The notes under the pieces: generated by a model
The model's input: only the letters and a program-made list of their open reading frames with translations
Database searches by the model: none
What the model was told of the DNA's origin: nothing
Made by a program: the position numbers and the translations under genes
Shown here: positions 6,001 through 42,651 of the stretch, in pieces
Numbering within the stretch: position 1 is the stretch's first letter
Layout: the number at the start of each line of letters is the position of its first letter
Source of the DNA: Candidatus Omnitrophota bacterium
GTDB taxonomy: Bacteria; Omnitrophota; Gorgyraeia; Gorgyraeales; Gorgyraeaceae
Direction: 5' to 3'
Assembly: GCA_018819285.1 (NCBI GenBank)
Contig: JAHJQM010000029.1
Coordinates: 280 to 64,279 of the forward strand
DNA length: 64,000 nt

Positions 6001-8076
6001 AGCTAAACCAGCATTGTCTGAGTCTATCGTAAATGTAAGATTTGTAGTAGAGACTTCATCGCCTGAAGCGCTTGAGGCAAAAGTTATAGTATTGGCAGTG
6101 TCATTTGGCGTAATTGTCATATTTGCGCCTTCCACAAAATCTATATCACCACCGTCATTGGTTACGCCGTCTATTGAAGAAACTACATTGCCTGAAAGCG
6201 TCCCCACTGCATGGGTATGAAGGCTATCAGCGTTGGAAACAGCGCCTGCTGTAAGCGTAGTAAGATTAGCAGCTGTAACTCCTGCGCCTGCGCTGGCTAG
6301 TTTATTCAGTTCGGCTGCTGTTGAAGTAACCTGCGTATCGCCTATATAAAAAGTTGTGGTATTTATAGCGCCAGAAACATTAAGTTTATACGTATCTGTT
6401 GTAGTTGTGCCTATCCCTACGTTATCTGTAATGGTCAAGAGATATATTCCTGTGCCGCCATCTGTCCAGCCACCTGCTGTTGCTGGCGTAACATTATCCG
6501 CGTATGCCTTTGTTACTGCATGACTAGCAGCAGTAGGGGTTGCTACTGATACTGTGCCTGCGAATGACGCGTTCCCTGAATTATCTACATAGAAGGCTTG
6601 TGTTGTACCGTCTAGGCCTGCATACGCGTCTATCAGGTAATTATCTCCTGTTGGAAGGCTTGTTTCTGTGGCTTGAATTTTTAGAGCAGTGTAAGAACCA
6701 GTTTTTGTAGCGCCTGTATAATTTACAGTTGGAGCAACATTTAAACCAATCGCAGTGGTTGTTGAATTTATTCCGCCATCTTGAAATGTTGGCTGAATAC
6801 TGGCTAAAGTTGGTGTTCCTGACGTGGAAGAATCTGTCTTTGAGACAGCAAAATTATCTGCAACAGTTAATACGCCTGTAGAATTAGAAACATTCCCTTT
6901 TAAGTCAGAAGCGCCTGTTACAGTAAGGCTGGCTAAAGTTGTATCGCCTAAAGACGTAGTGCCGCTTGAAGAGATATCCCCATAGATAGTACCGTCAACT
7001 TCTAAATCGCCCTGCACATACAGTTCCCCTGTAGAAAGCGCATATGCATTTGATGCCTCGCTCGCGCCTATTATTACTCTCTGACCTGCAAATTGCGCAG
7101 CAGGGCCTGTGGACGCCTGGTTTATATCCAGGGCGGCTGATGTGCCTGAATAATCCAAGTCAATATTTGAATTCATGTCGAGAGCGCTATTCAACATAGC
7201 TGCGCCGCTAACTGTTAAAGCGCCTGTTACATCCAAGCCATTGTTTGCGTCTACATTACCTCCGAATGTAACCTGGTTACTAGCGCCGATCTGAGTCAAC
7301 GCATCTGCTATAGTAACTGCTCCGCTTGAATTAGAAATATTTCCGCGTAAATCAGAAGTGTTTGTTACTACAATGCTTGAAAACGTGCTGTTGCCGCCGG
7401 TAGAAGCAATTGTGCCATAGATAGTCCCTGCAACTGTTAAATCATTTGACATGTTAACATTTCCAGTATCATTATCGACCAGCAAAAAGTTAGTTGTGCC
7501 GTCTGTGATTTTAAAATCGCCTGAAGTGGAATCAATAGTTATGACTACATCCCCTGTTCCTGTAGGATTTACTTCTATGTTTTGATTCGGCCCTCCTGTA
7601 AGAGACAATGCGCCTGTTGGAGCGCTGGCCAAAAAATCAGACGCGTCATAGCCATCCAGCTTATCTGCGTTTATAGCATACGCTACTGATGTAAGCCGCT
7701 GTCTGGGCGTCATTTCGCCATCTGACTCTACTTCCACAGAATACCAGTAAGGCGCATTAAAATCCAAGCTATCCAATACCTCGCTATTTCCAAGTAATAT
7801 ACTGAATATACCCCTGGTAACAGTAGCCGATTGAGTCTCTGTCCATAGCTTAATACCGCCTGATTCTGCGTCATATATCCTGATAGTGATACTAACATCA
7901 CCTGTGACAGGATCATCATTGGCATCTGTGAGCTTGCCTTGATAATTAATAAACCTGGGTATTTGAGCTTGCGCCCCAGGCGGCGCAATCGCTATAAACG
8001 ATAACATAAAGATCAGCACCAAAATATGCCAAAATCTCATTCCTCTTAAAATCCTTTTCATTGTCATGGTAATCAT
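1..8076 (-). CDS. giant secreted repeat protein, N-terminal >=2,690 codons (3' end runs off the window start)
   Basis: Own minus-strand translation. AGGAGG (rc of 8085-8090) lies 8 nt upstream of ATG at 8076. N-terminus MITMTMKRILRGMRFWHILVLIFMLSFIAIAPPGAQA is signal-peptide-like, followed by QIPRFINYQGKLTDANDDPVTGDVSITIRIYDAESGGIKLWTETQ. Spot checks keep the frame open: 4020-3961 gives YSIGAALMSTNPVTTKAILD, 1020-961 gives VDYDDATIGIVSNKLAVKAG, 60-1 gives TRINKASATSKTYTLSKDTY. It is absent from the ORF track presumably because no stop falls inside the window. Plus-strand ORFs 200..6220 are low-complexity antisense shadows. Confidence 0.75.
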   Translation of the reverse strand, partial: MITMTMKRILRGMRFWHILVLIFMLSFIAIAPPGAQAQIPRFINYQGKLTDANDDPVTGDVSITIRIYDAESGGIKLWTETQSATVTRGIFSILLGNSEVLDSLDFNAPYWYSVEVESDGEMTPRQRLTSVAYAINADKLDGYDASDFLASAPTGALSLTGGPNQNIEVNPTGTGDVVITIDSTSGDFKITDGTTNFLLVDNDTGNVNMSNDLTVAGTIYGTIASTGGNSTFSSIVVTNTSDLRGNISNSSGAVTIADALTQIGASNQVTFGGNVDANNGLDVTGALTVSGAAMLNSALDMNSNIDLDYSGTSAALDINQASTGPAAQFAGQRVIIGASEASNAYALSTGELYVQGDLEVDGTIYGDISSSGTTSLGDTTLASLTVTGASDLKGNVSNSTGVLTVADNFAVSKTDSSTSGTPTLASIQPTFQDGGINSTTTAIGLNVAPTVNYTGATKTGSYTALKIQATETSLPTGDNYLIDAYAGLDGTTQAFYVDNSGNASFAGTVSVATPTAASHAVTKAYADNVTPATAGGWTDGGTGIYLLTITDNVGIGTTTTDTYKLNVSGAINTTTFYIGDTQVTSTAAELNKLASAGAGVTAANLTTLTAGAVSNADSLHTHAVGTLSGNVVSSIDGVTNDGGDIDFVEGANMTITPNDTANTITFASSASGDEVSTTNLTFTIDSDNAGLAAANGAGLVIEGGTGSDVTIKVNSGTSNLDIAGVTGGINIPAGANYKINGSQIASSDLSDSSNIPKLNSTETITGDWDNTAHPWADDEVANDITASNYLPLAGGTVTGDITLSTAGTSIVTSGINLDLSPASGYGVTSTVTRSAATGDESAYDLAATINKATSGDYTGIKLNVTETSAPGAGNKLLDLQVGGSSKFSVDNVGLVSTASVNSASVVNDSLTAADLNVNVVSSINSVTNDGGNIDLVAGPNVTITPDDGANTITITSSYVDTVLNQEQVEDYAGGMVTGNTETNIDVTYDDAGGKLDFVLTGVPVLAPASTQTITAADTTATPLILKGMGGQTANLLEIQDSTALSHLTVEADGDVQIDTSGGDALSSITQSNASASLAIATNTAKLGGGADSDSDGVLKLGINEGNYQYLWYDTDAGTDGLGAFIFSDQAVIPTASPAYLNFGVNRDVNTGRYNQYYAIKLDPDVLNDASYSKQKFSVVSIPQPGVDFAKYEKALFDISSDGSFNIYDPTVGDAVFQIEAGGRLAHDFRNAIKNGSFEAFSGFEKFAGYDPSYAQTGVYNDTTTGYRGGWSNFAPDEWIWVEGKIAQHSPALFKTGTGNTGTFNTDFFDGKSAVAINEWVGKRGLNYLIGAPGSGNDAGIKQTMTGLEPNTWYSIGAALMSTNPVTTKAILDISGHYVPSTTITSGVSASATLDGSSTATILVTSTSNFPQGGTILIDDELFNYTGKTDISFTNVMRGINNTTAANHANNAVVRGTFKPLVSSSSTFVENKGSFKTDGIGSDVDIFLLCQQTSGANDTEFARFDAVQLVEGKVLPKYSPTSIIDTGDQSIYGTMKIGRSADGRGGILSVDQFVRTRGIDFFSEDPGMSGTAGGSGTVDRVPYDFINIHSTQAAPLNPGSVKMDVSGNYVERVMRKFQVRVMGAYDTPSPYIKYRYVECIDPMNEWASTSWQPWTETWYPASPGLTISANDTDLNFGIKIRFSDTTGFKGGDQWEFKAYGMSPEQSTYNSFNKEASYKPSEARIFKDPVTGELTFVDSNTGIIKLSEIIGQRSKAYISPPMRDPNNQGTLNITMSGELSSALFSSAQNVEIWTEVTFDNEGNPILPPTKFGWSIMWNPNSATAGTYNWYGNWGQDMSRGSTVSLISSTGQDIGIDIKFPATGDVFQYERWRFFASPTIVGNIAPHHHGNDEDGGLLGAPGTTSQDFAIASILSPADNDIKLSFGNGVSPNDKFLKWNKTLNQFDFSSSVNIAGTLTAANLIGPTSTSGTSNATFGVNTGLTGGVTEPAQGSGYIIGGGGSGNVNITYDTTGNYLNIAGQAGATDTFAGVNIPGGAKYKIGANNLSAGDIGAANFSHSHSATDLPTAGAGTAGIIPVGGLTDAMVSGTAGIQTSKLLDSANINDAITKSHTQGTDTTLGIMAADIQMGGNKVTDLGVPNQGGDAANKTYVDNAIAGLHWKDPVIAIQTTPPASPANGARYIVKSTGIDVWNGQDNKIAVYNGSTWDFTAPLQSYAVFNRADNAGYVYNGASWVAFSGATAYTWGTGLTNSGTIISVDNTVVATLAGSQILTNKTINGANNTIQGISDSSLNQITTANKVAGTAVQLNAAGAITNNSGIQVNLAATNPGLAITDNALDVKLSANQGITKGANGMSVDYDDATIGIVSNKLAVKAGSIGGGQIADSSITSAKILDGTIVDADVSNTAAIAQSKLNLAITNTEVAADAGIVDTKLATIATAGKVSDSALSSNVVLKNSTNTFTDTVASPVLIKPSSSPVANTKLFDMQATGAGATNFSVDSEGDVYANSLDLATTLPDSELSQIATAGKVSGASLTNLANIPVGAGVIPTANTPLGATIESGEISDGTIVDADINANAAIADTKLSQIATAGKVADTALSATVTKLGQTIESAEITDGTITTADISATAGILDSQLVISPSTRFYENFAEYVETGLQPATSANLTSDISLGTAYVQGTRINKASATSKTYTLSKDTY

Positions 8077-8084
8077 TTTAACCG

Positions 8085-8100
8085 CCTCCTTTTTAGGAGG
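8085..8100 (-). promoter_or_regulatory. SD/anti-SD hairpin (CCUCCU-AAAA-AGGAGG) at the RBS of the giant gene
   Basis: The plus strand reads cctcctttttaggagg. On the mRNA this is CCUCCUAAAAAGGAGG immediately followed by CGGUUAAA-AUG, so the SD could be sequestered in a 6-bp stem. Confidence 0.4.
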
Positions 8101-8148
8101 TAACTGCAGAGCTCGCTCCATATAGAGCAAGCGCTGTAGTTACACCCG

Positions 8149-8763
8149 TCAAAGCTCTTTGCTATTTTTCTCTTCACCTGTCTTTCCACTGGAAAGCACA
8201 GGAATATTTCCAGGAATAACCTTCCATTTCTTGCTCATCATTTCACCGTTACTTACAGGAGTAGCAGAGCGAACGCCAGTAAACTCCGCGCCAGAATTCG
8301 ATATCAATTTTGCAACCTGTTTTATATTTTTATTATTCGTATAAACCACAAATATAGCAGTTACCAAAACAAATACGGAAATAAAAGATAAAACCGCAAG
8401 GTCATATCTAAATCTCTTAGGTGCGCCAGAAGGAATACTGGCAACCTCGGCATCAATATTGTTCGAGCGGTCAGGAGAGTATGCTGCGGAAGCAGAGTCG
8501 AGAACCTTCTGTCCTAGTATTATCTTTTCCAATTCTTCCAGCCCTTCAAAATTTTTATTCAACTTGTAATATTTTAAATTGGCCTCTTCTTCAGTAATCA
8601 AAATTCCAATATTAGTTAATTTCATAAGCTGCCTTCTCAGTGGGCTTAATGATTCCTCTAATAATCTTTCTAGCTCTCTTAGATAATATCTATCATCTAT
8701 ATTAGAGAGAAATAATTTGAGAATTTTCAATCTGGTCTTTGAATTTACCAATTTCTCAATCAT
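8149..8763 (-). CDS. membrane-anchored winged-HTH transcriptional regulator (ArsR/PadR-like N-terminus, one TM helix, C-terminal extracytoplasmic tail)
   Basis: 204-aa ORF. The N-terminus KTRLKILKLFLSNIDDRYYLRELERLL...RRQLMKLTNIGIL resembles a wHTH. The hydrophobic segment LAVLSFISVFVLVTAIFVVY is a likely TM helix. SD AAGGAGGG precedes the ATG at 8763. It lies directly upstream of, and co-directional with, the giant gene. Confidence 0.55.
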   Translation of the reverse strand: MIEKLVNSKTRLKILKLFLSNIDDRYYLRELERLLEESLSPLRRQLMKLTNIGILITEEEANLKYYKLNKNFEGLEELEKIILGQKVLDSASAAYSPDRSNNIDAEVASIPSGAPKRFRYDLAVLSFISVFVLVTAIFVVYTNNKNIKQVAKLISNSGAEFTGVRSATPVSNGEMMSKKWKVIPGNIPVLSSGKTGEEKNSKEL

Positions 8764-8929: not shown

Positions 8930-9225
8930 CTTTAAAACCTTTTATCTTATCCTTTTGGCAGCTGACAACCATGAGTCCCTCCGGACTATTAGGCTCTAAA
9001 GCTTTGCGCCCCATTCTTTCGAATGGTTTACCCTTATCAATGAGATTTTTTTTATTCCAACTTCTCTCTCTACTCAAAAGTATACCACATATTAGACCTC
9101 TAGTCAAGATGTGTCCCCTCTCGAGTGAAAAAATACCTTTTTAAACGACTTTAACTAGTTTCAAGTATACCACCTCAAAAAATACTTGTCAATATATTGT
9201 GGATATTTTTTCTTAACCCACTATA

Positions 9226-10426: not shown

Positions 10427-13400
10427 TTATACTATGGCTCTTAAGAAAGCTATAAGAAATTTCAGAGAGACTCGTATAAATAATTTAACAAGGGGCTTAT
10501 CTTTTATTAATTCTGCTATTGGCGGGCTAAAACGGTAATAGAGATTAACGAATTCTTTACCCAGTTTTGATTTTAATAGGCACTGATCTCTGAATTCGCG
10601 CAAGGCTACCACTTCTTTAGCATCAGTAGAGCCAAATGCTGCGGTAGCGATGAAACAACTACCGCCGCCACCGCCACTACTATCTTGCTGTCCAGGATTC
10701 TCAGGCTGAGCAACATTTTCATTATTTTTTTCAGCGCCTGCGATTCCGAATATAGTAAAATGGCTTGTCTTTACTGTAACTATATTTTCTTTTGGAAATA
10801 CAAAACTGCCTGAAAGAATTTTCCATTCAACATTTTTTTCATCATACCAGTATACCTCCAAGGTTAACTCATCAATATTTTTATCATCTACAATACCATC
10901 TCCGTTTTCGTCAATATATGGTATAGATATAATCATTTCCTTATTAAAAGGGCCTTTGTGGTTTTCAAATTGATATTCCCGGTATTCTCCTATAGGCTTA
11001 TTTTGGTTAATATTGATTTCTCTCTGAATCTGGCTTGATTCCAATCTTTTTATATTAACAATGTCATCTTGCTCCAATATATCTGCCGGCATAACTAAAG
11101 ATGTTTTATCTGATAATTCTATTCTGCCTATTTTATACTTATATACATTATTTGGCGAGACGATTGGCTTTTTATCATTATTTTTTCCATTTGAAACATA
11201 GATAGTTTCTTGGCACGACATAATAACACGGCCTATTGTCCTGACATCAAGATTTGTCATGTAGGTTCCTGAATCATTATATGTAAATTCCGCCTGAGGA
11301 ACCAGAGTTACGAGGTCAATTATCCCATCATTGTCAAAATCCCATAAATATTCCACATCGCTTATTTCATCTTCAATTTCAAAGGAAAATCTTACTGCAA
11401 GGGGTGCATTGCCCTTTTGCGGATTGATAATAATTTTGCCTTTTTTAATATCCTCTGGATCAAAAATCCCGAATCTAATTTCTGATTTGGCCTGGTTGGA
11501 TAAATTGTTTGAGTCTGTAACGCGTACAGTAGGCGTGTAAACGCCTGGCTCGCAATAAGTGTGTTTAATTATGCCAGGGCTTAATGAAGTATAATCGAAT
11601 ACGCCATCGCCTTCAAAATCCCATTGATATTTTTGGATTAAATTGCTGCTATTTACAGCAGCTTCAAAATTTATTTCCAGAGGGACATTTCCTGTAACAG
11701 GCGATACTGAGGAACTAACGCTCAAAACTTTAGGGTCTTCTATCTCAATTAAAGCCTTCTCTGAGCCAGTTAATCCGTCAAAGCTGGTAACCCTGAACTC
11801 CGCATTATATTTTCCTGGAAGGGCATAGGTTTTAACAACCTCCCCTGATTCAGATGAATTAGCTTCAAAAACGCCGTCACCATCGAAATCCCATTCATAT
11901 TTCGATACGCCTTGAGGGCAAAATGCATCGCCTTTAAAAAATACCTTGCAAGGCGCAACGCCTTCTAAAGGAAACGCATTTAAATAGACGCCTGGCGCGT
12001 CAGGATTTTTAGCTACATTAATAGTAACTGTATAGGTATTCGTGATTCCGTTTTTATCTGTTACGCGTAACTTTGCAGGAAAGCTGCCTTCGCCTGTATA
12101 TATAAAAACAACCTCCCCTGATTCAGGCGAACTGAAATCATATATGCCTTTGCCATCAAAATCCCATTCGTATTTAACTATTCTTTTGAACTTACTGATA
12201 GCTTCTGACTTAAAATGCACTTCGAGCGGGGCCATGCCATTTAAAGGTTCAGCCAGCGACTTTGCTTCCAAGATTATAGGCAAAGAATCGGAAACTATTA
12301 TTTTAACTTTTTCTGAGGCCTTGACTTTGCCATCGCTGACAATAAATGTTACAAAATATTCTCCTGTTTGATTTTCTACCGGCTTCCAGAAAAATCTTTT
12401 TACCCATGGATCAAAACTGGCTCCGCGAGGAAGCGTTTCTGCAGAATAAATAAGCAAATCTCCGTCTATATCAACGGCTTCAACAAAAAATTCTAAACTA
12501 TCTCCTGCTATTATTTCTTTTTCGCCTATAGTAAATAAAACGGGCTCGTGATTTTTCTTTGGAATTTCTTTTTCGCCCACGTCAAAAAATATTGAACCCT
12601 GGCCGATCTCTCCAAATTTATACATAACCCTGTAAATCCCATGCCTGTCTAATTCAGGAGAGACTATTTTTTCGAATTTATTGACGCCTTTTTGCAGATT
12701 TACGTCTTCTTCAATGATATTCACGGCATCTGAATCCGGCTTTATTAAATACGCGCTTAACTTGATAGAACATGCTTCGCCTGATTCAATCTTCCAATTA
12801 AGAGCCACGTTTTCGCCGTCTTCGTAAATATCCTTATCGCATCCCGCTTTAATGATTTTAATGGAAGATGTTTCCGGCTTTTCCCCGTTTATTAAATAAG
12901 AATTTAAATAAAGGGATTTTCCGGATTCAAAATATATCCCATAATAAATTTTCTCATTGTCGTTCAGGCCGGGGATATTGAATTCGAGATCCTTTTCTTC
13001 ATTCAGGACAAAATCTATCTTCTTTTCATAATCACTGCATCTGGCCTCTGCAAAAAGCTTCAAGCCCTTCGCTGAGCTTAAATTTTTAACATTGAGCTTA
13101 AAGATACCGGCCTCTGCCTCAGCCTCAGCTTCAACCTTTACGCCTATTATTTTAAAATTTACCTTATGCGTCTCGTCTTTAAATTTATACTCTGCTTCAT
13201 AATTCCCTTCATCCGCATCTTCCGGGATTAAAAATTCGAACGCTATTTCTTTATCCTTGCCAGATCCTAATAATTCTGATCGCGTTTCATTGATTAGATC
13301 CTGGGATTTAAAATTTACTTCGCATTTTCCCTGCGCCTCGCCTTCATTTATAATCCTAAATCTAAATTTGGCTTTTTCTCCTGCGTTAAAACTAAGGCCT

Positions 13401-16400
13401 TCGTCTTCCAAATAGAAAACCTTAAAAATTGGCGCGCTAATTTTTTCGCCTATATAAAAGGCTTTTACGAACTTAACTGTTTCCTGAAAAATAGGGGATT
13501 TTAATGTTGCCTCTATGTAATATTTTCCTTTTCCCGCAATAGCCGGAATTTCAAAATTAATCACTGATTCATTTTCTATATTAGAAATTTCCTCGCGCTT
13601 TTGAAAGCATGCAAAATCGCTGCCAGAATATTCATCGCCAGAAGTATAAACTGCGAGAAGCTTATATCTTAAAAAAGAACTCTCGCTATTATATCTGTCG
13701 TAGACCTGGATATAATAATTAGACGGGTTAGCGGTTTCAAATTCCATTGTAACATCTTCGCCTGAGGCGCCGCCTTTTATGTCAATGTTCTGGCCAGACT
13801 CTTTATAAAGTTTCATATAAGGCCTTACATTGACCGGCATGTCTTTTAAATAAACAGTTATTTTGCCGGCGTCTGGTATAGATAATTTATAAAAATCGGA
13901 ATCTGCTTTGGTCGCAACTGTGGCAAAGTAATTTTTACCAAAATCAATAAGCCTTGCAGCCTCTTTTGTTTCATTGGGCTCGTATTCATCCAGGGTTTTT
14001 ATAAAATTAAAATTCAGGGAGTAGCTATTTAGCGAAGAGACATTTCCATACCAGTCTCTTACTAAAAGATAATAAAGGCCGGGTTTGTCAAATTCTGTCT
14101 CAAGGATTACATTTTCATTGGCTGAGCCGCCTTTCATTGAGATTACTTTGCCTGATGTATCATAAATTTTTATAGAAGGCCTCAGGCCTTGCGGCACTTC
14201 GTACATTTTTATATATAAAACGCCCTTTTCCTGGATATTGAATTTAAAAAAGTCTTCATCTCCGGTACTATAGATTTTACCGTGTATTCTTGAATCCACA
14301 TCTATCTCGTTTGCGTTTGTAAAAGCGCTGTTAGGCTCTATCTCCTCAGAATCCTGATATATAGCCGGGTCCAATGTATCATTAAAAATATTTTCGCCTT
14401 CGTTTATCTGTATATTTTTTGATATATTGCCAGGCGACGCAGTTAAAAGATAATTTCCAACAGGCACATAGATAAATTTAAACAGGCTATCGCCTGAAGT
14501 TACGGCAAATCTAGTTGAGGTATTCGAACTGGCAACGTTCACAGGTTCCAGCGTAATGGTCGAACCTATTGAATTTTCAATAACGCCTGACAGATTTCCA
14601 TATTTTGACGGCGTTAAATTTATATCCAGATTGTTGTCTCCTGGAAAAATTTCAATATCTTTTGAAACAGTGTCGAAAGCCGGGGCTTTTATACTGATAA
14701 CTCTATGACCTTTATCAAGGCCTTTTAACCTGTATTTGCCGTCTTTATTTGTATAAATGCCTTCTATTATGGCGCCTTTTATAACAGCGCCGTTATCATC
14801 TCTTACTGTCCCATATAAATCCCATGAATTCAATTCCGGAAAAACTCTAATATCAAGATAACCTTTTTCTATTATTTCTCCGATATTTTTAATTTTAACG
14901 CTCGCAGATATAAGCTGATTCTTCGGATAATTATTTTCCATATTTACAATTAAATCCACGTTCAGGCCAGGGATACTGTAAGATTCTGTAGCGATTTCTG
15001 TATCTTCGCCATCACTTAAAGGCTTTGGGCCTTCGAAACATATGCTTTTAAATCCAATAAGCCTGGAATTCGAAAATGTGCTAAGTTTAGCTTTGCATGT
15101 TCCTCTTGAAATATCCTCTGGTATAGCGAAACTCTGAGGCCAGGACCCGGAGCCAAGCTCTGCTAATTTGATCTCCGAGGAACAATAATAAATTTGTTTG
15201 TTGCTAGAGTCGGTTATATCCAGGATGGTCAGGATATTAAGCGAGACGCTGGTTTTATTTTTAAAATTTACGTTTATTGAGGCTATTTCGCCAGGCAAAT
15301 ACTGCTCTTTATCACTAGACATATCTATATCCAAGCTTGGCTCAAAGACATTAATGCCCCGCTCTGCCTTGCCTATAAAAACATTCTGCGAAGAATAAAA
15401 ATAAGAACTCAACAGGTCTGTTGAGCTAGCGATTATTTCCTTATCGAATGAAATTGTTTTGCCGGCAGGAACTACGACTATGTCATTATATTCTATTTTA
15501 TGATGCGGGAGTATTGCTTTATATTTTATCGACTCATCCCTGGCAGTATTATTTCTCATGTGAAATGTAAACGTGGCAACGTTGCCAGAGATATAATTTT
15601 CACTGTCGCTTGTTATGTCAAAGGTAAAATCCGGGTTTTGTGAAGCGTCTGGCGGTGGCTTGGCAAAAGAAAAATAAATTCCTTCTGCTTGAGGCTGGAT
15701 GGCTTTAGAATCAATGTCGTAAAGAATGTAGTCCACAGAATAGATTCCTGGTTTTTCCAGGGCCTGGCCTAACTTATACGCCGCTTCGTTTGAAATATTC
15801 CTCTCTAAAACCTCACCTTCAGGCGACTTTAATATCATTTCTATCTTGTTAAAATCAAGGTTTGTCTGTATTGGGATTTCAAAACTCTCGCCAGTTTTAT
15901 ATTCTGGCAAGTTTTTGCCGGACTTTGCCCATCGAAGGAGATCTCTTACGAGATTAATCTCTGAAGAACTTGCCTGGCCATTTAAATAGCCCCAGTCTGA
16001 ATACATAGAAGCTACTATGACGACGCCTTTTCCGAAATTATACAAAAGCATTGCAGGCATCTGGTTTTTTGACCTTCTAAGTAAAATTGCGGCGCCATCC
16101 GGATAATCCGTAAAATATCCGTCCAGTTTTATATCAGGGTATAATTCATTTTGCGAACTAAGTACCTGGTGGAAATTTTCAATATAGGCGGCTTTTGTAT
16201 GACAGGACGCATCTTCCTGCCAGCCGTATGCATTTAGTCTTTCTCCTGGAAGGGCGTTAAAATCATAGCCATATTGCTGGGAAAAACATATAATAGCGCC
16301 TCCATTTTTTACATACTCTGAAAGTTTATTTTTGAATATCGCTGAATGCGAAAGGCCTGAAAGCCCGCCCGTAGGAATTACCAGGACCTTTTGTTCGTCA

Positions 16401-17821
16401 AGTATATAAGGCTCGAACGTATGGTCTATAATCCTGACCGGCTCTCCGACTTTTTCTATTATTAACTTTCTCATCTCATTGTAATAACCATTTGCCAATA
16501 CAGCTATATCAGGAGATTCAAGGTATTCCCTGGACGCATATATATAATAATCATGGAGAAGTTTATTTTTCTGGCCCAGGGCTTCTTCCCATTCATTGAT
16601 AATATTATCTACGTTAGCGCCTGTTGAAATTTCCAATTGAGCGTCTTCAAATAGAGTTAATATTTCCCAGTATTTCATTAGATATGCCTTATTTTTCCTG
16701 ACCGCAATCCTGAGATATAAATCAAAAAGCTTCCTGGGGCTCATATCTATGCCTTTGGCAAAATCTACTGTATCGAATGTATCATCAGGATGGTCTATGC
16801 CAGGGCCTGATAAAAATGCCAACTGTTTATTCTTATAAGGCTTCAACCTCTTGAAAAAAATGCTTTCTCCGCCTTTTTCCAGTTTATCAAGCATGACTGC
16901 TAAAACTGTTTCACTATTGCAGAAATTAAAATGATTCACGCCCAAAAAATACTCATACCCTATGTCTTCTCTTTTTTCTATAACAGGGCTCCAGTCGCCT
17001 ACTATCAAGTCTTCGCTGCCGATTGCAATAAATGTCTTTATGCGCTTATCAGGCCCAAGATCCTGTATGCTTTTTAAGAACATGCTGTCCGGAGATAGTT
17101 CTTTTCTCAAGGCTTCGGATTCCATGCGGCTGCCAGGTATCCATATTTTATTATCAGCTACTTCCAATGCATATTGGCAGGCAGTCATGCTCTGGGCAAA
17201 AACCGATGGAATTACGCCCAGGATATTTTTGATATTTGCTACAAGGCTTGTAGAGCCGTTGTTGGGCGGGGCAAGTTCTATTATTGTCTCTATATTGTCT
17301 CTATAAGGGACTAAACCGAGCGAGCGCGAATACGCTGTTACCGCAAGACCTCCTGTAGAGTGGGTTATTACATCTGCCTTTTTATAATTTCTATCCGGGA
17401 GATTCTTATTTAGATAATCTATCCCTTCTTTTAACGCTACGCCTACATCATCGCCTAAATCCCTTACACCATAACCCCATGAATTGCCAATCATAGGCGC
17501 GTCTATCTTATGATCTCCATTTGTATCAACCGCATTTCCGCGCATATCAACGACAATTACATCGTAGCCGCGCTCAGTTAATTTTTTTACATAATTCTTA
17601 TTCTTATCACTCCAAACTTCTCCGCTAGAGTTAAAGCCGTGGACTAATAATATAGGCCTTTCTTTAATATCATTTGCAGCGTTTTCGTAACAATAAAAAT
17701 TTATTTTTGCGCCTTTGGTGCTCTCAACAGTAAAAGGCTTGGCAGGCTCATCCAATGCAAAAATATTATTTGCAAAAAAGATGAAAAATATGCCTGATAT
17801 TAAATGAATGATCAGCTTCAT
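10427..17821 (-). CDS. giant (2,464 aa) secreted multidomain protein with lipase/esterase, GATase1/ThuA-like, CARDB/Ig-like, four PPC, carboxypeptidase-regulatory-like and four PKD domains, and a C-terminal CFI-box-like putative sorting domain
   Basis: Signal peptide MKLIIHLISGIFFIFFANNIFA. Lipase-like nucleophile VITHSTGG around aa 155 (compare B. subtilis LipA AHSMGG). VLVIPTGG...GGAIICF matches a GATase1/ThuA-like domain. Repeated ...DxDFYKL / DEDFFKF PPC-like modules. An EAEAEAEA linker. Four PKD signatures: YEWDFDGKG, YEWDFDGDG, YQWDFEGDG, YLWDFDNDG. C-terminus is GGGGGSCFIATAAFGS...REFRD...YYRFSPPIAELI, read at 10621-10680. Confidence 0.85.
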   Translation of the reverse strand: MKLIIHLISGIFFIFFANNIFALDEPAKPFTVESTKGAKINFYCYENAANDIKERPILLVHGFNSSGEVWSDKNKNYVKKLTERGYDVIVVDMRGNAVDTNGDHKIDAPMIGNSWGYGVRDLGDDVGVALKEGIDYLNKNLPDRNYKKADVITHSTGGLAVTAYSRSLGLVPYRDNIETIIELAPPNNGSTSLVANIKNILGVIPSVFAQSMTACQYALEVADNKIWIPGSRMESEALRKELSPDSMFLKSIQDLGPDKRIKTFIAIGSEDLIVGDWSPVIEKREDIGYEYFLGVNHFNFCNSETVLAVMLDKLEKGGESIFFKRLKPYKNKQLAFLSGPGIDHPDDTFDTVDFAKGIDMSPRKLFDLYLRIAVRKNKAYLMKYWEILTLFEDAQLEISTGANVDNIINEWEEALGQKNKLLHDYYIYASREYLESPDIAVLANGYYNEMRKLIIEKVGEPVRIIDHTFEPYILDEQKVLVIPTGGLSGLSHSAIFKNKLSEYVKNGGAIICFSQQYGYDFNALPGERLNAYGWQEDASCHTKAAYIENFHQVLSSQNELYPDIKLDGYFTDYPDGAAILLRRSKNQMPAMLLYNFGKGVVIVASMYSDWGYLNGQASSSEINLVRDLLRWAKSGKNLPEYKTGESFEIPIQTNLDFNKIEMILKSPEGEVLERNISNEAAYKLGQALEKPGIYSVDYILYDIDSKAIQPQAEGIYFSFAKPPPDASQNPDFTFDITSDSENYISGNVATFTFHMRNNTARDESIKYKAILPHHKIEYNDIVVVPAGKTISFDKEIIASSTDLLSSYFYSSQNVFIGKAERGINVFEPSLDIDMSSDKEQYLPGEIASINVNFKNKTSVSLNILTILDITDSSNKQIYYCSSEIKLAELGSGSWPQSFAIPEDISRGTCKAKLSTFSNSRLIGFKSICFEGPKPLSDGEDTEIATESYSIPGLNVDLIVNMENNYPKNQLISASVKIKNIGEIIEKGYLDIRVFPELNSWDLYGTVRDDNGAVIKGAIIEGIYTNKDGKYRLKGLDKGHRVISIKAPAFDTVSKDIEIFPGDNNLDINLTPSKYGNLSGVIENSIGSTITLEPVNVASSNTSTRFAVTSGDSLFKFIYVPVGNYLLTASPGNISKNIQINEGENIFNDTLDPAIYQDSEEIEPNSAFTNANEIDVDSRIHGKIYSTGDEDFFKFNIQEKGVLYIKMYEVPQGLRPSIKIYDTSGKVISMKGGSANENVILETEFDKPGLYYLLVRDWYGNVSSLNSYSLNFNFIKTLDEYEPNETKEAARLIDFGKNYFATVATKADSDFYKLSIPDAGKITVYLKDMPVNVRPYMKLYKESGQNIDIKGGASGEDVTMEFETANPSNYYIQVYDRYNSESSFLRYKLLAVYTSGDEYSGSDFACFQKREEISNIENESVINFEIPAIAGKGKYYIEATLKSPIFQETVKFVKAFYIGEKISAPIFKVFYLEDEGLSFNAGEKAKFRFRIINEGEAQGKCEVNFKSQDLINETRSELLGSGKDKEIAFEFLIPEDADEGNYEAEYKFKDETHKVNFKIIGVKVEAEAEAEAGIFKLNVKNLSSAKGLKLFAEARCSDYEKKIDFVLNEEKDLEFNIPGLNDNEKIYYGIYFESGKSLYLNSYLINGEKPETSSIKIIKAGCDKDIYEDGENVALNWKIESGEACSIKLSAYLIKPDSDAVNIIEEDVNLQKGVNKFEKIVSPELDRHGIYRVMYKFGEIGQGSIFFDVGEKEIPKKNHEPVLFTIGEKEIIAGDSLEFFVEAVDIDGDLLIYSAETLPRGASFDPWVKRFFWKPVENQTGEYFVTFIVSDGKVKASEKVKIIVSDSLPIILEAKSLAEPLNGMAPLEVHFKSEAISKFKRIVKYEWDFDGKGIYDFSSPESGEVVFIYTGEGSFPAKLRVTDKNGITNTYTVTINVAKNPDAPGVYLNAFPLEGVAPCKVFFKGDAFCPQGVSKYEWDFDGDGVFEANSSESGEVVKTYALPGKYNAEFRVTSFDGLTGSEKALIEIEDPKVLSVSSSVSPVTGNVPLEINFEAAVNSSNLIQKYQWDFEGDGVFDYTSLSPGIIKHTYCEPGVYTPTVRVTDSNNLSNQAKSEIRFGIFDPEDIKKGKIIINPQKGNAPLAVRFSFEIEDEISDVEYLWDFDNDGIIDLVTLVPQAEFTYNDSGTYMTNLDVRTIGRVIMSCQETIYVSNGKNNDKKPIVSPNNVYKYKIGRIELSDKTSLVMPADILEQDDIVNIKRLESSQIQREININQNKPIGEYREYQFENHKGPFNKEMIISIPYIDENGDGIVDDKNIDELTLEVYWYDEKNVEWKILSGSFVFPKENIVTVKTSHFTIFGIAGAEKNNENVAQPENPGQQDSSGGGGGSCFIATAAFGSTDAKEVVALREFRDQCLLKSKLGKEFVNLYYRFSPPIAELIKDKPLVKLFIRVSLKFLIAFLRAIV

Positions 17822-17889: not shown

Positions 17890-18486
17890 TTATTGAATTA
17901 ATCTTTCAAGGCTTGTTTCTTCGTCTTTTAGAGTCCAAAGGAAGTCGTTCTTTAGCAGGATCGTTATTTTGTACTTTTCTGACCGTTCTGAAAATTTAAA
18001 TTTATTTATAAGGGTAGGTTGGCGTTTTCTTATAATTTTATCTGAGTCCAGTTGCAGTTTTTTATCTGCGCCGTTATTGGGATTAATTGTCCAATATCTT
18101 CTGCTGACAGTACGTACGCTCCATGCGTCGGACTTTGATAGCTGCTGGCAAAATACTATCCTTCCTTCATTAGTCCATTCGGGATAACGCATATCTATTT
18201 CAAAAAAATTTCTCCAACGATATTTTTTAAAAAATTTAGCTGTGCGATTTATAAGTGAACGGTCCTGAAAGGTAAGTTTTTTGAGGTTTTTGCCGTCTAT
18301 ATCTACTACCCAGATATCAAGATTCCCGACTGGAGTTATTGCAGAGAATGCAATTTTTGATTCATCCGGCGAAAGTTCAAAATCTATAATCTTTACTATA
18401 TCGCTTTTACTATGATTTACTGCGCCGCCGCAACTTCCCATAGCTATTCCAAGAAAAATAATCCCCAGCACCATCCTAGGCATCAT
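17890..18486 (-). CDS. lipoprotein with TolB/PD40-like beta-propeller repeat
   Basis: Lipobox LGIAMGSC. SPDESKIAFSAITPVGNLDIWVVDIDGKNLKKLT is PD40-like. SD GAAGGGGG precedes the ATG. It lies immediately upstream of the 2,464-aa gene on the same strand. Confidence 0.55.
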   Translation of the reverse strand: MMPRMVLGIIFLGIAMGSCGGAVNHSKSDIVKIIDFELSPDESKIAFSAITPVGNLDIWVVDIDGKNLKKLTFQDRSLINRTAKFFKKYRWRNFFEIDMRYPEWTNEGRIVFCQQLSKSDAWSVRTVSRRYWTINPNNGADKKLQLDSDKIIRKRQPTLINKFKFSERSEKYKITILLKNDFLWTLKDEETSLERLIQ

Positions 18487-18542: not shown

Positions 18543-18896
18543 CTATCTCCTATTTCTTGATTTTCTGCGCTCTTTATACAATGTATTGATTACTGGATAA
18601 TAAATGTTTACAGCGGCAGAGCTAGACTCTTTAACTATATTGATTATTTTCTTTTTCTTGTAGTCAGATGAGTTTAGTTTTTCATCATTTAATAAAAGTT
18701 CGTAGATATCTACTTCTAAGGCCTCTGCAATGCGGGAAATCATATAAAAGGTAGGGAGTTTTTTGCAGCTTTCAATTCTGCTTATATATGTAGGATGAAC
18801 ATTTACTTCTTCTGCTAATCTTAACTGCGTCCAACCTTTGGAGTTTCGAATTGTCCTGATTCTATTGGCTAGAATACTGCTATCATTTGCTATGCT
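18543..18896 (-). CDS. XRE-family helix-turn-helix transcriptional regulator
   Basis: MSIANDSSILANRIRTIRNSKGWTQLRLAEEVNVHPTYISRIESCKKLPTFYMISRIAEALEVDIYELL is a classic XRE HTH. The track ORF starts at 19031 and overlaps REP-A copy 3, so the likely true start is ATG 18896 (MSIAN) with an AAAGG SD. Confidence 0.7.
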   Translation of the reverse strand, partial: SIANDSSILANRIRTIRNSKGWTQLRLAEEVNVHPTYISRIESCKKLPTFYMISRIAEALEVDIYELLLNDEKLNSSDYKKKKIINIVKESSSAAVNIYYPVINTLYKERRKSRNRR

Positions 18897-19013
18897 CATA
18901 AAATTACCTTTCATTATAAATAGACAGAGTGATAGAGTGAATAAAAATAAGGTCATATAATAATGTCTATTGGACACACTGTTATGATATGTTAAAAAAT
19001 ATGGCCGGCTTCT

Positions 19014-19048
19014 AAGTTGACACTCTGACAATGTTAGAGTGTCAACTT
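19014..19048. repeat. REP-A copy 3 (aagttgacactctgacaatgttagagtgtcaactt); contains the RAYT stop codon
   Basis: The RAYT ORF ends ...CCA AGT TGA, with TGA being rc of tca at 19042-19044 inside the palindrome arm. Confidence 0.85.
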
Positions 19049-19938
19049 GGCGTATAGCTAGACTGAAGCTTATAAATGGCCTGACGGGTCAAATTTAACT
19101 TTTCTGCAATTTCAGAAACATGAAAACCTCTTGATTTTAACTGTTCTATCAAAAACATTCTTGCCTTAATCTCTTGAGGATTAGTAAGTCTTCCTTTTTT
19201 CCTTAATTGCTCTATCCGCTTTTCAATATCGTAATCGTCTGGAAGATTGCGCTCTATGCGCCATTCTTTATTTTTTTCTCTCAACATCCTTGCCATCGCA
19301 TCCAGGGCATCAGGTTTTTCAAATACATTACTTATCCTGCCGACATTAAATCCTTTTAACAGATTTCTATATTTCATCTTGGCGCGACATATATCATTAT
19401 CCAATATTTCAAGAATAAATTTATAATCCACAAACGTCTCCTTTTCTGCATCGTCTAAAAATAATGCGCACGAAGACCATCTGTAATCAACAGGATTATT
19501 AGCCAATTCTGCTTTTGCAGGATTTACATGTATATACAATGATGATGCTAAAAGATAACTATCATCAAAACACAATGCCGATCTATATGCTCCGCAAAAT
19601 ACGTGCCCTTTTCTCTGGTATTTTTTATTGAAATATACAGCATATCGTTGCAACAGCTTTTTCATTATATCCGACATATTTGATCCAAGAAACTTTAATA
19701 GTAAATGAAGATGATTTGACATAAGCACAAAACTTAATACATTACACTTAAACTTACAGAGAACTTCTTTTATCAAATGAAGCATATAAAGATAATCTGC
19801 GTCTTCTAAAAATAGGGGCTCTGTTCCTGATGCATGCTGAGTAATATGACTTATAGCGCCTTCAAAACAATATTTATTTCTAGCCCTGAAGTAACGCTTC
19901 ACCTCCCCCCGCTCTATCAATTCAATTATATCTGCCAC
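19042..19938 (-). CDS. IS200/IS605-like Y1 HuH transposase, REP-associated tyrosine transposase (RAYT)-like, with a C-terminal ~120-aa HTH-containing extension
   Basis: LFLEDADYLYMLHLIKEVLCKFKCNVLSFVLMSNHLHLLLKF is the HuH motif NHLHLLL. ...LQRYAVYFNKKYQRKGHVFCGAYRSALCFDDSYLLASSLYIHVNPAKAELANNPVDYRWSSCALF matches the Y1_Tnp fold, with a catalytic Tyr candidate in RYAVYFNKKY. The C-terminal GFHVSEIAEKLNLTRQAIYKL is HTH-like. Likely start is GTG at 19938 after AGGAGG (rc of 19945-19950). The track start at 19962 is a TTG inside REP-A copy 4. Flanked by REP-A copies 3, 4 and 5. Confidence 0.8.
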   Translation of the reverse strand: MADIIELIERGEVKRYFRARNKYCFEGAISHITQHASGTEPLFLEDADYLYMLHLIKEVLCKFKCNVLSFVLMSNHLHLLLKFLGSNMSDIMKKLLQRYAVYFNKKYQRKGHVFCGAYRSALCFDDSYLLASSLYIHVNPAKAELANNPVDYRWSSCALFLDDAEKETFVDYKFILEILDNDICRAKMKYRNLLKGFNVGRISNVFEKPDALDAMARMLREKNKEWRIERNLPDDYDIEKRIEQLRKKGRLTNPQEIKARMFLIEQLKSRGFHVSEIAEKLNLTRQAIYKLQSSYTPS

Positions 19939-19960
19939 AATACACCTCCTCTGGTTAAAC

Positions 19961-19995
19961 AAGTTGACAAACTAACATTGTAAGAGTGTCAACTT
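19961..19995. repeat. REP-A copy 4 (aagttgacaaactaacattgtaagagtgtcaactt)
   Basis: Upstream of the RAYT start. Confidence 0.85.
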
Positions 19996-24671: not shown

Positions 24672-25184
24672 TCATACGTTTAAATTTTTGTCAAATTTGG
24701 CAAAAGAAATAATAAATAACGCAGTTCCTATTGTAATTGAGGAATCTGCGATATTGAAAACTGGCCATATTCTAAAATCAATAAAATCAATAACATACCG
24801 CAAGTTAACCCTATCTATCAGATTACCGAGTGCTCCTGATATTATAAGGACCAGGCTAAAATTGCAAAGAAAATTATCCAGGAAGCTGCCTTTTCTGATA
24901 GCCTTTACAAGAATAGCTCCTATCATTATCACTGCAATTACTGATACCACAATAAAAAAATAGGTGCTGTTTTTAAAAATCCCGAAAGCTGCGCCTGTAT
25001 TTTTTACAAACGTGATATGCAAAATATCTTTTATTATAGGTATGGATTGGCCGACGTATAACTTTGAAGAAATAGCTGCCTTGGAAACCTGGTCTATTAA
25101 TAGGAGTAAAAAAATGGAAAGAATGCTTATGGCGCTACTTATTCTTTTCTTCTTTCGACTTGCATTGTATGCAATATTTGGCAT
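24672..25184 (-). CDS. lspA: lipoprotein signal peptidase II
   Basis: NTGAAFG and FNIADSSITIG are conserved LspA motifs. The start is uncertain and the ORF overlaps the 3' end of the upstream gene. Confidence 0.8.
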   Translation of the reverse strand: MPNIAYNASRKKKRISSAISILSIFLLLLIDQVSKAAISSKLYVGQSIPIIKDILHITFVKNTGAAFGIFKNSTYFFIVVSVIAVIMIGAILVKAIRKGSFLDNFLCNFSLVLIISGALGNLIDRVNLRYVIDFIDFRIWPVFNIADSSITIGTALFIISFAKFDKNLNV

Positions 25185-25506
25185 ATGGGACGGCACTAAG
25201 GCGTTTCTGAGGTATTTTTTTTTCGCAGGAAATACATTTTCCGAATTTACCCTCTTCTATACGCTTCAACGCCTCATCAATTTCGTATACAATCTCCTGC
25301 TCTCCGCCGGCAATATTCAGGCTCAACTCTCTGTCATAGCTGTCGCTTGCCATATCTGCCATATGGAAACTATATCCGGAAAGATCGCCTGACGATTCCT
25401 TCTGAGACTTATGGCTCTCTTTGGTTATATGGTTTATATCGCCTGCGATGTCTTCTCTCACTTTTATCAAAAGTTTCTTGTATTTTGCCAGCTCTTGTTT
25501 CATCAT
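25135..25506 (-). CDS. DksA/TraR-family C4 zinc-finger protein (YlyA-like)
   Basis: CISCEKKIP...YCIQC gives the CxxC-x17-CxxC finger. Its position between ileS and lspA mirrors the B. subtilis ileS-ylyA-lspA-rluD arrangement. Confidence 0.7.
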   Translation of the reverse strand: MMKQELAKYKKLLIKVREDIAGDINHITKESHKSQKESSGDLSGYSFHMADMASDSYDRELSLNIAGGEQEIVYEIDEALKRIEEGKFGKCISCEKKIPQKRLSAVPYAKYCIQCKSKEEKNK

Positions 25507-28242: not shown

Positions 28243-29094
28243 TCACATATATTTCCCTATTATTATGTCCAGCTTTTCTTTTATGCGTTCGGGTATAAGT
28301 TTTTTGTCAGTCACTATAGCGTATTTAAGGGCGTCCCTGCAAGCGCATTTTCTTTCATCTTTAAGCTGGGGCAATACTTCTTTTATTAATTTTTTTGCTG
28401 TATCTACATTTTTCAGTAAATTTCCTATTACCATTTCAATGTTCACTTCTTCCTCATACCAGCAGTCATAATCAGTTACAAGAGCGATTGTCGCAAAACA
28501 CATTTCCGCCTCTCTTGCAAGCCTTGCCTCAGGCATATTAGTCATCCCTATAATATCCATACCCCAGCTTTTGTATAGATGAGACTCTGCCCTTGTAGAA
28601 AAAGCCGGGCCTTCCATATTAAGGTATATGCCTTTGTCGTGCATTGTAATCCCTGATTTTTTGCCTGTATCGTAAATTATTTTCCTTAGATGGCTGCACA
28701 CGGGATCTGCGAAACTTACGTGGGCGACTATGCCCTGTCCGAAAAATGTAGTTTTGCGGCCCTGATTGGTCCTGTCTACAAACTGATCAGGAAGCACTAT
28801 ATCCAGAGGCTTCAATTCTTTTTTAAAACTTCCTACCGCTGATATAGATAGCAGCTGTTCTACGCCAAGTTTTTTCATAGCGTATATATTTGCCCTGTAA
28901 TTGAGCTCTGTAGGTAAAATCGTATGGCCCCTTTTGTGCCGGGCTAGAAATACTACCTCCACGCCTTCGAGATTTCCGATAATAAAATTATCAGACGGCT
29001 CGCCAAAAGGCGTTTCCACTGTAATTTCCTTTATGTCTTTTAATACATCTATCTGATATAACCCGCTACCGCCAATAATCCCTACCTTCGGCAT
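28243..29094 (-). CDS. mtnP: S-methyl-5'-thioadenosine phosphorylase / purine nucleoside phosphorylase
   Basis: MPKVGIIGGSGLY. The track start is a TTG at 29118 that abuts REP-A copy 6. ATG 29094 with an AGGAGG SD (rc of 29099-29104) is more likely. Confidence 0.8.
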   Translation of the reverse strand: MPKVGIIGGSGLYQIDVLKDIKEITVETPFGEPSDNFIIGNLEGVEVVFLARHKRGHTILPTELNYRANIYAMKKLGVEQLLSISAVGSFKKELKPLDIVLPDQFVDRTNQGRKTTFFGQGIVAHVSFADPVCSHLRKIIYDTGKKSGITMHDKGIYLNMEGPAFSTRAESHLYKSWGMDIIGMTNMPEARLAREAEMCFATIALVTDYDCWYEEEVNIEMVIGNLLKNVDTAKKLIKEVLPQLKDERKCACRDALKYAIVTDKKLIPERIKEKLDIIIGKYM

Positions 29095-29119
29095 ACTTCC
29101 TCCTATCCTATAACCCAAT

Positions 29120-29154
29120 AAGTTGACACTCTAACATTGTCATGTTGTCAACTT
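29120..29154. repeat. REP-A copy 6 (aagttgacactctaacattgtcatgttgtcaactt; inner part diverged)
   Basis: The proC stop TGA (29140-29142) lies in the centre of the element. Confidence 0.8.
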
Positions 29155-29907: not shown

Positions 29908-29917
29908 ATTTTACCTC

Positions 29918-31063: not shown

Positions 31064-31074
31064 ATAAATAATTG

Positions 31075-36154: not shown

Positions 36155-36165
36155 AAAACCCTCCT

Positions 36166-36200
36166 AAGTTGACACTCTAACAATGTTAGAATGTCAACTT
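36166..36200. repeat. REP-A copy 7 (aagttgacactctaacaatgttagaatgtcaactt; 1 mismatch)
   Basis: Sits in the 48-bp ftsW-murG intergenic space, 3 nt after the ftsW stop and just before the murG SD. Confidence 0.85.
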
Positions 36201-36202
36201 AG

Positions 36203-38558: not shown

Positions 38559-38577
38559 ACTTCATCTTCTCCTTAAG

Positions 38578-38616: not shown

Positions 38617-38623
38617 TTACATA

Positions 38624-42635: not shown

Positions 42636-42651
42636 ATATACCTATCTTAAC

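Follow-up and report, generated by a model that had tools for sequence, protein, structure and literature searches.

In a 64,000-nucleotide stretch of Candidatus Omnitrophota contig JAHJQM010000029.1 (the window, by which we mean this whole stretch), a single gene on the minus strand encodes a 2,464-residue protein whose last 76 residues are, by profile match, clearly a member of the CFI-box-CTERM family. This tail is already covered by a curated NCBIfam family, to which the window protein adds a member. We propose that the protein is a hydrolase or adhesin exported through Sec and retained at the cell envelope, with the CFI-box tail as its retention or sorting module, and we put the probability of this reading at roughly 55%. 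The features it builds on first are listed here.

10427..17821, minus strand: whole open reading frame (ORF), 2,464 residues plus stop codon; single uninterrupted frame with an ATG start, orthologues in loci L003 and L005
17756..17821, minus strand: putative Sec signal peptide, residues 1-22 (MKLIIHLISGIFFIFFANNIFA, followed by LDE); positive by inspection and by a crude hydrophobicity rule
10658..10699, minus strand: glycine-rich spacer NPGQQDSSGGGGGS, residues 2375-2388, read from the sequence (SSGGGGGS before the Cys)
10430..10657, minus strand: CFI-box-CTERM domain, short form, residues 2389-2464; NF041770 at 89.8 bits, helices in an AlphaFold2 (AF2) model

The gene and its C-terminal tail

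The large gene is real rather than a chance ORF, since full-length orthologues with conserved gene order exist. The orthologue in one Omnitrophota metagenome-assembled genome (MAG; L003, JAUSEX01) is 72% identical over residues 1-1483 and 68% identical over residues 1525-2454, and in a second Omnitrophota MAG (L005, JABMRA01) identity over the corresponding blocks is 53% and 41%. Gene order in L003 is that of the window: a helix-turn-helix (HTH) regulator, a small lipoprotein, the large gene, an RluD-type pseudouridine synthase, an ArsR-like regulator and a second very large gene. One partial homologue is named by NCBI as Omnitrophica. A preliminary description of this DNA, made from the sequence alone, had already delimited the single large ORF and assigned it a signal peptide; the ORF holds up, and the N-terminus looks like a Sec signal peptide. 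It is conceivable that the frame is an error of assembly or annotation, as the source is a metagenome contig and run-on fusions of adjacent CFI-box genes occur in databases, or that the tail match is a chance resemblance of a low-complexity hydrophobic end. We consider this extremely improbable, given that the identical protein was called in two independent assemblies (ENA ERZ27247117, contig k141_38198; Logan SRR6514730), that the orthologues keep their gene order, that multiple independent Pfam domains lie along the one frame and that the tail matches its family with E = 7.4e-26. By coordinate arithmetic, the window reaches about 69 nucleotides past the end of the ENA contig (64,131 nucleotides), which implies that it was taken from a different and slightly longer assembly of the same organism.

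The tail reads GGGGGS-CFIATAAFGS...REFRD...YYRFSPPIAELI and lies exactly at the C-terminus, with the Cys at residue 2389 (window nucleotide 10657). The preliminary description had placed the motif there and identified it as the putative CFI-box-CTERM sorting domain, an assignment borne out by NCBIfam model NF041770 (CFI_box_CTERM): with a cutoff of 40 bits, it scores 89.8 on residues 2389-2456 (E = 7.4e-26), and 68 of its 69 positions (1-68) are aligned. The isolated 98-residue tail, a comparison that the description had itself suggested, scores 96.4 bits against the same model, and Pfam has no family for it. The 14-residue motif model NF041763 stays under its cutoff (12.3 against 15.9 bits; E = 0.11); the Ser at position -1, counted from the Cys as position 1, and the Phe at position 8 are not the residues most often found there. 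The window tail has C1, F2, I3, A4, T5, A6, A7, G9, R23, D24, G33, Y40, Y41, S44, P45, A48 and R62 of the family's conserved positions (compared with the table of 316 tails described below), and the consensus His54 and Pro67 are Lys and Phe. It stops 76 residues past the Cys, lacking the terminal transmembrane (TM) helix and the RRRK cluster that many members carry, and its last helix, with a hydrophobic moment of 0.54, is amphipathic and presents a basic face. We set aside lipobox-type lipidation of the tail Cys, as both a hydrophobic h-region before the Cys and [LVI] at -3 are absent. No second CFI-box was found in the window.

Spread and conservation of the CFI-box domain

The family to which this tail belongs is very large. 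A profile built from ten tails and run against 1.84 billion cluster representatives retrieved 30,092 proteins with E <= 1e-3, of which 22,275 pass the stricter threshold of 1e-10, and at least 600 CFI-box matches were found when one genome per species was scanned. Among the matches listed are Omnitrophota, Chloroflexota/Dehalococcoidia, Nitrospirota, Desulfobacterota, Planctomycetota, Gamma- and Betaproteobacteria, Myxococcota, Bdellovibrio, Elusimicrobia, Parcubacteria and a Syntrophomonas isolate. Cultivable carriers include Bdellovibrio bacteriovorus s4 (L081), Syntrophomonas palmitatica JCM 14374 (L071) and Zhongshania. Both diderm and monoderm phyla carry the domain, which suggests action at the cytoplasmic membrane and not in an outer-membrane system.

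At 78 of 80 genome loci the domain keeps to the C-terminal end, with 73-124 residues between its Cys and the stop codon; in the other two (L040, L063) about 340 residues follow the Cys. Internal or tandem CFI copies were considered as evidence against a C-terminal role and rejected as such, being run-on fusions of adjacent CFI-box genes that each have their own signal peptide; the fused database proteins P0012, P0013 and P0015 are two neighbouring CFI-box genes read through, with two signal peptides and two tails. Adjacent pairs of CFI-box paralogues are frequent (L026, L027, L028, L036, L054, L077). The preliminary description had tied its reading to a model match and to recurrence of the motif: NF041770 matches, and related genomes carry several CFI-boxes, with two within 20 kb in L027 and L054 (both Omnitrophota) and others on three contigs of one Nitrospirales MAG. 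The passengers are diverse and extracellular in type, with fn3, InlB B-repeat, subtilase S8, SBBP, DUF11 and TIG domains, and a crude heuristic called a signal-peptide-like N-terminus in 52 of the 69 CFI-box ORFs that are complete, compared with 124 of 468 ORFs in their neighbourhood.

Across 316 non-redundant tails the domain aligns over 70 positions without a gap. Conservation is at least 97% at C1, F2, I3, A4, T5, A6, A7, G9, L19, F22, R23, D24, L27, G33, V37, Y40, Y41, S44, P45, A48 and R62, where the figures for positions 1-7 are partly a product of selection: the 316 are top search matches, a sample that leans towards strong members, and were picked by a pattern in which the Cys is obligatory and the six residues after it are restricted. 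Upstream, each of the five positions before the Cys is Gly in 76-88% of 320 family tails; at -1 Gly is found in 249 of the 320 and Ser in 19. The invariant Cys, Arg-Asp and Tyr-Tyr imply, as far as conservation can speak to function, a specific interaction or chemistry beyond hydrophobic anchoring.

Two forms of the tail were observed. The long form (55 of 84 tails) continues past the domain into a hydrophobic helix, with a median best 19-residue Kyte-Doolittle (KD) score of 2.17, and then an RRRK-type cluster of Arg and Lys. By the positive-inside rule, the CFI domain of the long form would sit outside the cell and the basic tail inside. The short form (29 of 84, the window protein included) ends after the domain, has a median score of 1.06 and keeps every invariant position; it accounts for most Omnitrophota, Planctomycetota and Dehalococcoidia examples. 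Model NF041770 does not demand a TM helix or a basic cluster at the end. An AF2 model of the tail, computed with 60 sequences, predicts a disordered Gly linker followed by four helices at residues 16-22 (FIATAAF), 28-41, 45-67 and 69-89 of the 90-residue query, with a predicted local distance difference test score (pLDDT) of 70-77.

These are the features that make the tail family of interest, with at least 30,000 sequence clusters in many phyla sharing a gapless, conserved 70-residue domain and an invariant Cys. Knowing its function would allow the localisation of thousands of anonymous extracellular proteins to be predicted and, should an enzyme take part, would define a new sorting pathway. 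The window protein itself is ordinary, one more large, probably exported hydrolase or adhesin of Omnitrophota. What the window contributes is a clean short-form example together with a negative result on linked partner genes, here and at 80 further loci; it illustrates the CFI-box tail family without resolving its role.

Search for a partner or sorting enzyme

The tail could alternatively be a processed sorting signal, which after export would be recognised by an enzyme encoded elsewhere. The enzyme would cleave at Gly-Gly-x-Cys-Phe-Ile-Ala-Thr-Ala-Ala or alter the Cys, whether through lipidation or through transfer to an envelope acceptor, and the helical domain would then be discarded or re-used. 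In its logic such a route would resemble LPXTG with sortase, PEP-CTERM with exosortase, GlyGly-CTERM with rhombosortase, or the C-terminal domain of type IX secretion. C, F, I, A, T, A, A and G each reach at least 99% in the 316 pattern-selected tails, preceded by a Gly run at 76-88%; the domain is strictly C-terminal on diverse exported passengers, with several paralogues per genome; most members add a TM helix and a basic cluster; and the names of the NCBI models call it a 'putative sorting motif'. We hold this possible but doubtful, partly on account of the search for the enzyme that it calls for.

Precomputed Pfam annotations covering essentially the whole window include no sortase, exosortase, rhomboid or CPBP protein, in agreement with the preliminary description, which had listed no sortase, exosortase or rhombosortase here. 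The sole signal-processing enzyme in the window is the housekeeping LspA (24672..25196) of the usual ileS-lspA pair, and the housekeeping content shown by these annotations further comprises threonine and homoserine genes, the mra/mur/fts cell-wall cluster and a sugar-modification cluster. We then looked across loci, clustering by all-against-all BLASTP the 2,099 ORFs of the window and of 80 CFI-box loci, the latter taken with flanks of up to 10 kb. A linked, conserved neighbour or sorting enzyme was rejected on this evidence: the largest cluster other than the CFI-box proteins, a PstB-like ABC ATPase, is present at only 6 of the 80 loci, and a Pfam scan of 116 immediate CFI-box neighbours places no family in more than 4 of them. 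If a processing enzyme exists at all, its gene must lie elsewhere, since the window has no partner and none recurs across the 80 loci. The preliminary description had called the enzyme unknown, and the literature that we searched is in line with this, leaving the motif, the name and the model numbers unmentioned.

Beyond the unlinked enzyme (at most 6 of 80 loci per cluster and 4 of 116 neighbours per Pfam family, and none in the window), the architecture also speaks against a processed signal. Classical membrane-embedded sorting enzymes act on a motif at the membrane boundary, but in the long form some 70 residues separate the CFI motif from the TM helix, and the short form has no TM helix at all. 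The signal is, moreover, a predicted folded domain of about 70 residues, not a short motif.

A missing linked partner would also suit an autonomous module, and the tail could by analogy be self-processing, with an N-to-S acyl shift at Gly-Cys leading to autoproteolysis or to transfer of the passenger without a dedicated enzyme. Acyl shifts of this kind are established at G|S in SEA domains and at G|C in Hedgehog/Hint domains. The invariant Cys follows small residues, and the invariant Arg23-Asp24 and Tyr40-Tyr41 could form a catalytic environment. Self-processing is nonetheless improbable: the argument is pure analogy with the chemistry of SEA and Hint domains, the fold is predicted to be all-helical, and the tail has no sequence or structural similarity to Hint, SEA or any entry of the PDB.

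Taken in its widest form, covalent chemistry at Gly-Gly-x-Cys, performed by a never-linked enzyme or by the domain itself, would make the CFI-box domain the handle of an undiscovered sorting or self-processing system that spans phyla, an idea that we put forward tentatively and think rather unlikely. Were it true, the Omnitrophota short form, which has no TM helix, would show that the helical domain and not the membrane anchor is the functional unit.

Type II secretion system (T2SS) genes (GspE, GspF, a secretin and a GspC-like ORF) adjoin CFI-box genes at about 5 of the 80 loci, mostly in Omnitrophota-type contexts; in the clustering, GspE, GspF and the secretin are present at 4-5 loci. Examples are L030 (2769-3545 and 8332-11233) and L022 (10331-12292), to which some three other loci can be added. 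These are too few loci for a link between the T2SS and the CFI-box, and the window has no T2SS genes.

A proposed model for export and retention

Returning to envelope retention, which we favour, the N-terminal signal peptide would direct Sec export across the cytoplasmic membrane. The catalytic head would be the N-terminal serine alpha/beta-hydrolase, to which we come below, and a stalk of about 2,000 residues made of Ig-like, CarboxypepD_reg, PPC, He_PIG and PKD modules may space or target it. The last 76 residues, the CFI-box-CTERM domain, are proposed as the envelope-retention or sorting module: a flexible Gly run, then a compact helical domain of about 70 residues that would lie against the cytoplasmic membrane on its outer side. 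In long forms the TM helix and the Arg/Lys cluster would anchor this domain at the membrane. In the short form, anchoring may fall to the amphipathic, basic last helix, to partner binding by the conserved face, or to both.

Several observations weigh against this model. Nothing in the window accounts for how a protein of 2,464 residues would cross the Omnitrophota outer membrane. The best 19-residue window of the tail has a KD score of 1.66, which is borderline and marks no clear TM segment, and the protein could be released rather than retained, given a short form without such a segment. A gapless 70-residue domain with invariant Cys, Arg-Asp and Tyr-Tyr is, judging from the alignment, conserved beyond what a passive anchor needs. 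The tail model itself is moderate (mean pLDDT 67.9; predicted template modelling score 0.49), and the PDB offers neither a structural analogue of it nor a sequence relative. Signal-peptide calls throughout were made by inspection and a crude hydrophobicity heuristic. Finally, the literature searched mentions neither the CFI-box name nor the motif, NF041770 or NF041763, and since it holds no experiment or paper on the domain, the argument for retention comes from architecture alone.

The hydrolase head and the stalk

Upstream of the tail, the protein was divided into the following regions.

16892..17674, minus strand: alpha/beta-hydrolase domain, residues about 50-310; Abhydrolase_6 and Abhydrolase_1 matches
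15722..16834, minus strand: lineage-specific region without an assigned fold, residues about 330-700; Pfam null at E <= 1, AF2 pLDDT < 50
14822..15724, minus strand: Ig-like or macroglobulin-like beta modules, residues about 700-1000; sub-threshold Arrestin_C (25.6 bits), A2M_BRD (19.5) and MG2
14615..14818, minus strand: CarboxypepD_reg-like beta-sandwich, residues 1002-1069; PF13620 at 40.1 bits against a cutoff of 32.3
13622..14344, minus strand: two PPC-like modules, residues about 1160-1400; PF04151 at 27.6 against 25.9 for the second module
12512..13564, minus strand: beta-rich, Ig-like region without a family assignment, residues about 1420-1770; weak MG2 and DUF4625 matches
12293..12508, minus strand: He_PIG/Big_9 Ig domain, residues 1772-1843; PF05345 at 35.6 bits against a cutoff of 24
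11177..12229, minus strand: four tandem PKD domains, residues about 1865-2215; PKD_4 at E = 1.6e-29 (102.2 bits), PKD at E = 1e-23
10700..11176, minus strand: pre-tail domain, residues about 2216-2374; BLASTP matches to other Omnitrophota CFI-box proteins, no Pfam family

The head has, on the evidence of its family matches and alignment, an alpha/beta-hydrolase fold with a conserved Ser-Asp-His set. With residues 1-330 scanned alone, Abhydrolase_6 reaches 31.2 bits against a cutoff of 26.3 and Abhydrolase_1 28.7 against 25.8; in the whole-protein scan the former is just over its cutoff (26.8 against 26.3) and the latter under it (24.0 against 25.8). An HG oxyanion motif (LLVHGF) lies at residues 58-63 and a nucleophile elbow (THSTGG) at residues 153-158, with Ser155 as the nucleophile and Asp271 and His297 as candidate partners. 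This triad was assigned by alignment position rather than from a structure, the AF2 model being poor, and its three residues do not vary among the homologues whose alignment reaches them (5-6 of 7); the position preceding Asp271 is E or K. The preliminary description had called the domain a lipase on the strength of its HSTGG: the elbow does fall inside the alpha/beta-hydrolase match, but the lipase-specific call goes too far, the lipase-type families lying under their cutoffs (Lipase_2 12.9 against 20.3, DUF676 13.5 against 20.3 and Palm_thioest 15.2 against 26.8 bits).

Between the head and the stalk, residues 330-700 appear to be specific to the lineage. The GATase1/ThuA-like domain that the preliminary description had placed here found no counterpart, the Pfam scan of residues 330-700 being null at E <= 1 and a PDB sequence search giving no match in this region (residues about 470-640). 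For the N-terminal 697 residues, the AF2 model has a mean pLDDT of 42.7 and falls below 50 over residues 330-700, built as it was on a shallow alignment of 8 close sequences, and a PDB profile search returned non-significant matches alone, to alpha/beta-hydrolases of haloperoxidase type. Only 7 homologues of residues 1-650 were found in a database of 5.8 billion sequences; one is the NCBI-named Omnitrophica protein and the rest are metagenome proteins, and one of the 7 is weak (49% identity over 28% coverage).

The stalk proved to be less rich in named modules than the preliminary description had it. The four PKD modules of that account stand: motifs of the form W-D/K-F-D/E-G/N-D/K-G, of which WDFDGDG is the type, recur at residues 1886, 1977, 2067 and 2160 with a period of about 90 residues, and HMMER reports three PKD stretches. 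Where four PPC modules had been claimed, we find two PPC-like modules, both opening with EPN (residues 1162 and 1281) and carrying D-x-D-F-[FY]-K, of which one exceeds the Pfam cutoff. Its CARDB arrays are likewise missing, PF07705 being absent at E <= 1 from residues 700-1000 and 1420-1770 and at E <= 0.01 from the whole protein; weak Ig-like matches of MG2, A2M and Arrestin_C type occur instead. The preliminary description was thus right about the CFI-box tail and over-read the four PPC modules, CARDB, GATase1/ThuA and the lipase. Repeats were counted by motif and profile hidden Markov model, BLAST of the protein against itself giving no off-diagonal match at 1e-3. A Por_Secre_tail signal is sub-threshold (13.4-18.9 bits) and internal (residues about 1200-1255), not C-terminal.

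The last part of the protein is shared more widely than the head. Residues from about 2239 to 2464 align by BLASTP to the C-terminal ends of the proteins at loci L073, L034, L044, L075 and L025, and these last 230 or so residues, pre-tail domain and tail together, are common to other large Omnitrophota proteins of 1,000-3,200 residues.

Comparison with known systems

With the rest of the NF041770 family, the window protein shares the Gly run, CFIATAA[FY]G[ST], LRxFRD, G-x-x-F-V-x-x-Y-Y-x-x-S-P-P-x-A and R62, as well as the C-terminal position on a multi-domain passenger, in its case one that is probably exported. It differs in being a short form, where 55 of 84 tails are long, and in its passenger: the hydrolase and residues 330-700 have 7 homologues, and the NCBI-named one and the genome orthologues are Omnitrophota.

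The classical tripartite sorting signals (LPXTG/sortase, PEP-CTERM/exosortase, GlyGly-CTERM/rhombosortase and PGF-CTERM/archaeosortase) are likewise C-terminal, borne by diverse exported passengers, present as paralogues and preceded by a low-complexity spacer, and the TM helix and basic tail of the CFI long forms recall them further. In those systems, however, a motif of 3-6 residues abuts the TM helix, in contrast to the predicted helical domain of about 70 residues of the CFI-box; the window's short form has no TM helix, and a cognate enzyme is neither known nor linked. The C-terminal domain of the type IX secretion system (T9SS), matched by Por_Secre_tail, is likewise a folded unit of 70-100 residues with a role in localisation, carried by large multi-domain hydrolases and adhesins with PKD and Ig arrays. 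That domain is a beta-sandwich restricted to the Bacteroidota-type T9SS, whereas the CFI tail is modelled as helical and is found in phyla without a T9SS, monoderms included.

Within the phylum, the nearest comparison is with the giant surface proteins of Omnitrophota, which are long, exported, equipped with adhesion and degradative domains, and read as tools with which prey or host cells are attached to and digested (preprints: West-Roberts et al. 2023, 10.1101/2023.11.21.568195; 2026, 10.64898/2026.06.07.730766). TM anchors and T2SS genes close by are described in both accounts, and the CFI-box tail goes unmentioned. At 2,464 residues the window protein falls far short of these giants of at least 10,000 residues; it comes from the same phylum. 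The T2SS genes that adjoin some CFI-box loci echo the T2SS linkage reported for the Omnitrophota giant genes.

Neighbouring genes in the window

Other features of the window are listed below, starting with the gene immediately upstream of the large gene.

17890..18486, minus strand: putative lipoprotein of 198 residues, beta-propeller-like; precomputed Tricorn_N match
18543..19031, minus strand: XRE-family HTH regulator adjoining the transposase-like ORF
19042-19962, minus strand: ORF like an IS200/Y1-type REP-associated tyrosine transposase, two genes upstream of the large gene; Y1_Tnp at E = 1.4e-9, NF047646 at 57.8 bits, below its cutoff of 80
8954-9042, minus strand: c-di-GMP-I riboswitch aptamer; RF01051 at 71.2 bits against a gathering score of 35
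8928-8901, minus strand: terminator-like hairpin after the riboswitch
8149..8763, minus strand: ArsR-like HTH ORF just downstream of the riboswitch
1-8139, minus strand: second very large ORF, at least 2,713 residues, running off the window edge; signal-peptide-like start (MKRILRGMRFWHILVLIFMLSFIAIAPPGAQAQ)
28243-45679, minus strand: complete division and cell-wall cluster mraZ-mraW-ftsI-murE-murF-mraY-murD-ftsW-murG-murC-murB-ddl-ftsQ-ftsA

The 198-residue ORF had been described as a PD40 lipoprotein. Its N-terminus is lipoprotein-like (…GIAMGS-C) and the precomputed Tricorn_N match agrees with a beta-propeller, but a direct Pfam scan was null at E <= 0.1. A gap of 68 nucleotides, without a terminator-like site, separates it from the large gene, and the pair is conserved in L003, where the two overlap by 4 nucleotides, and in L005. 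The two genes are probably in one operon, which makes plausible the co-transcription that the preliminary description had envisaged.

The second very large ORF matches DUF2793 above cutoff (51 bits) and Av_adeno_fibre (22.0 against 22.7) and Bactofilin (18.2) below it. No NCBIfam match was found in the part that lies in the window, its C-terminus falling outside. In L003 it has a syntenic counterpart with 72% identity. The riboswitch and its hairpin lie just upstream of the ArsR-like ORF and this second very large ORF, which suggests that cyclic di-GMP controls this surface-protein operon. The complete mra/mur/fts cluster fits the intact peptidoglycan synthesis reported for Omnitrophota.

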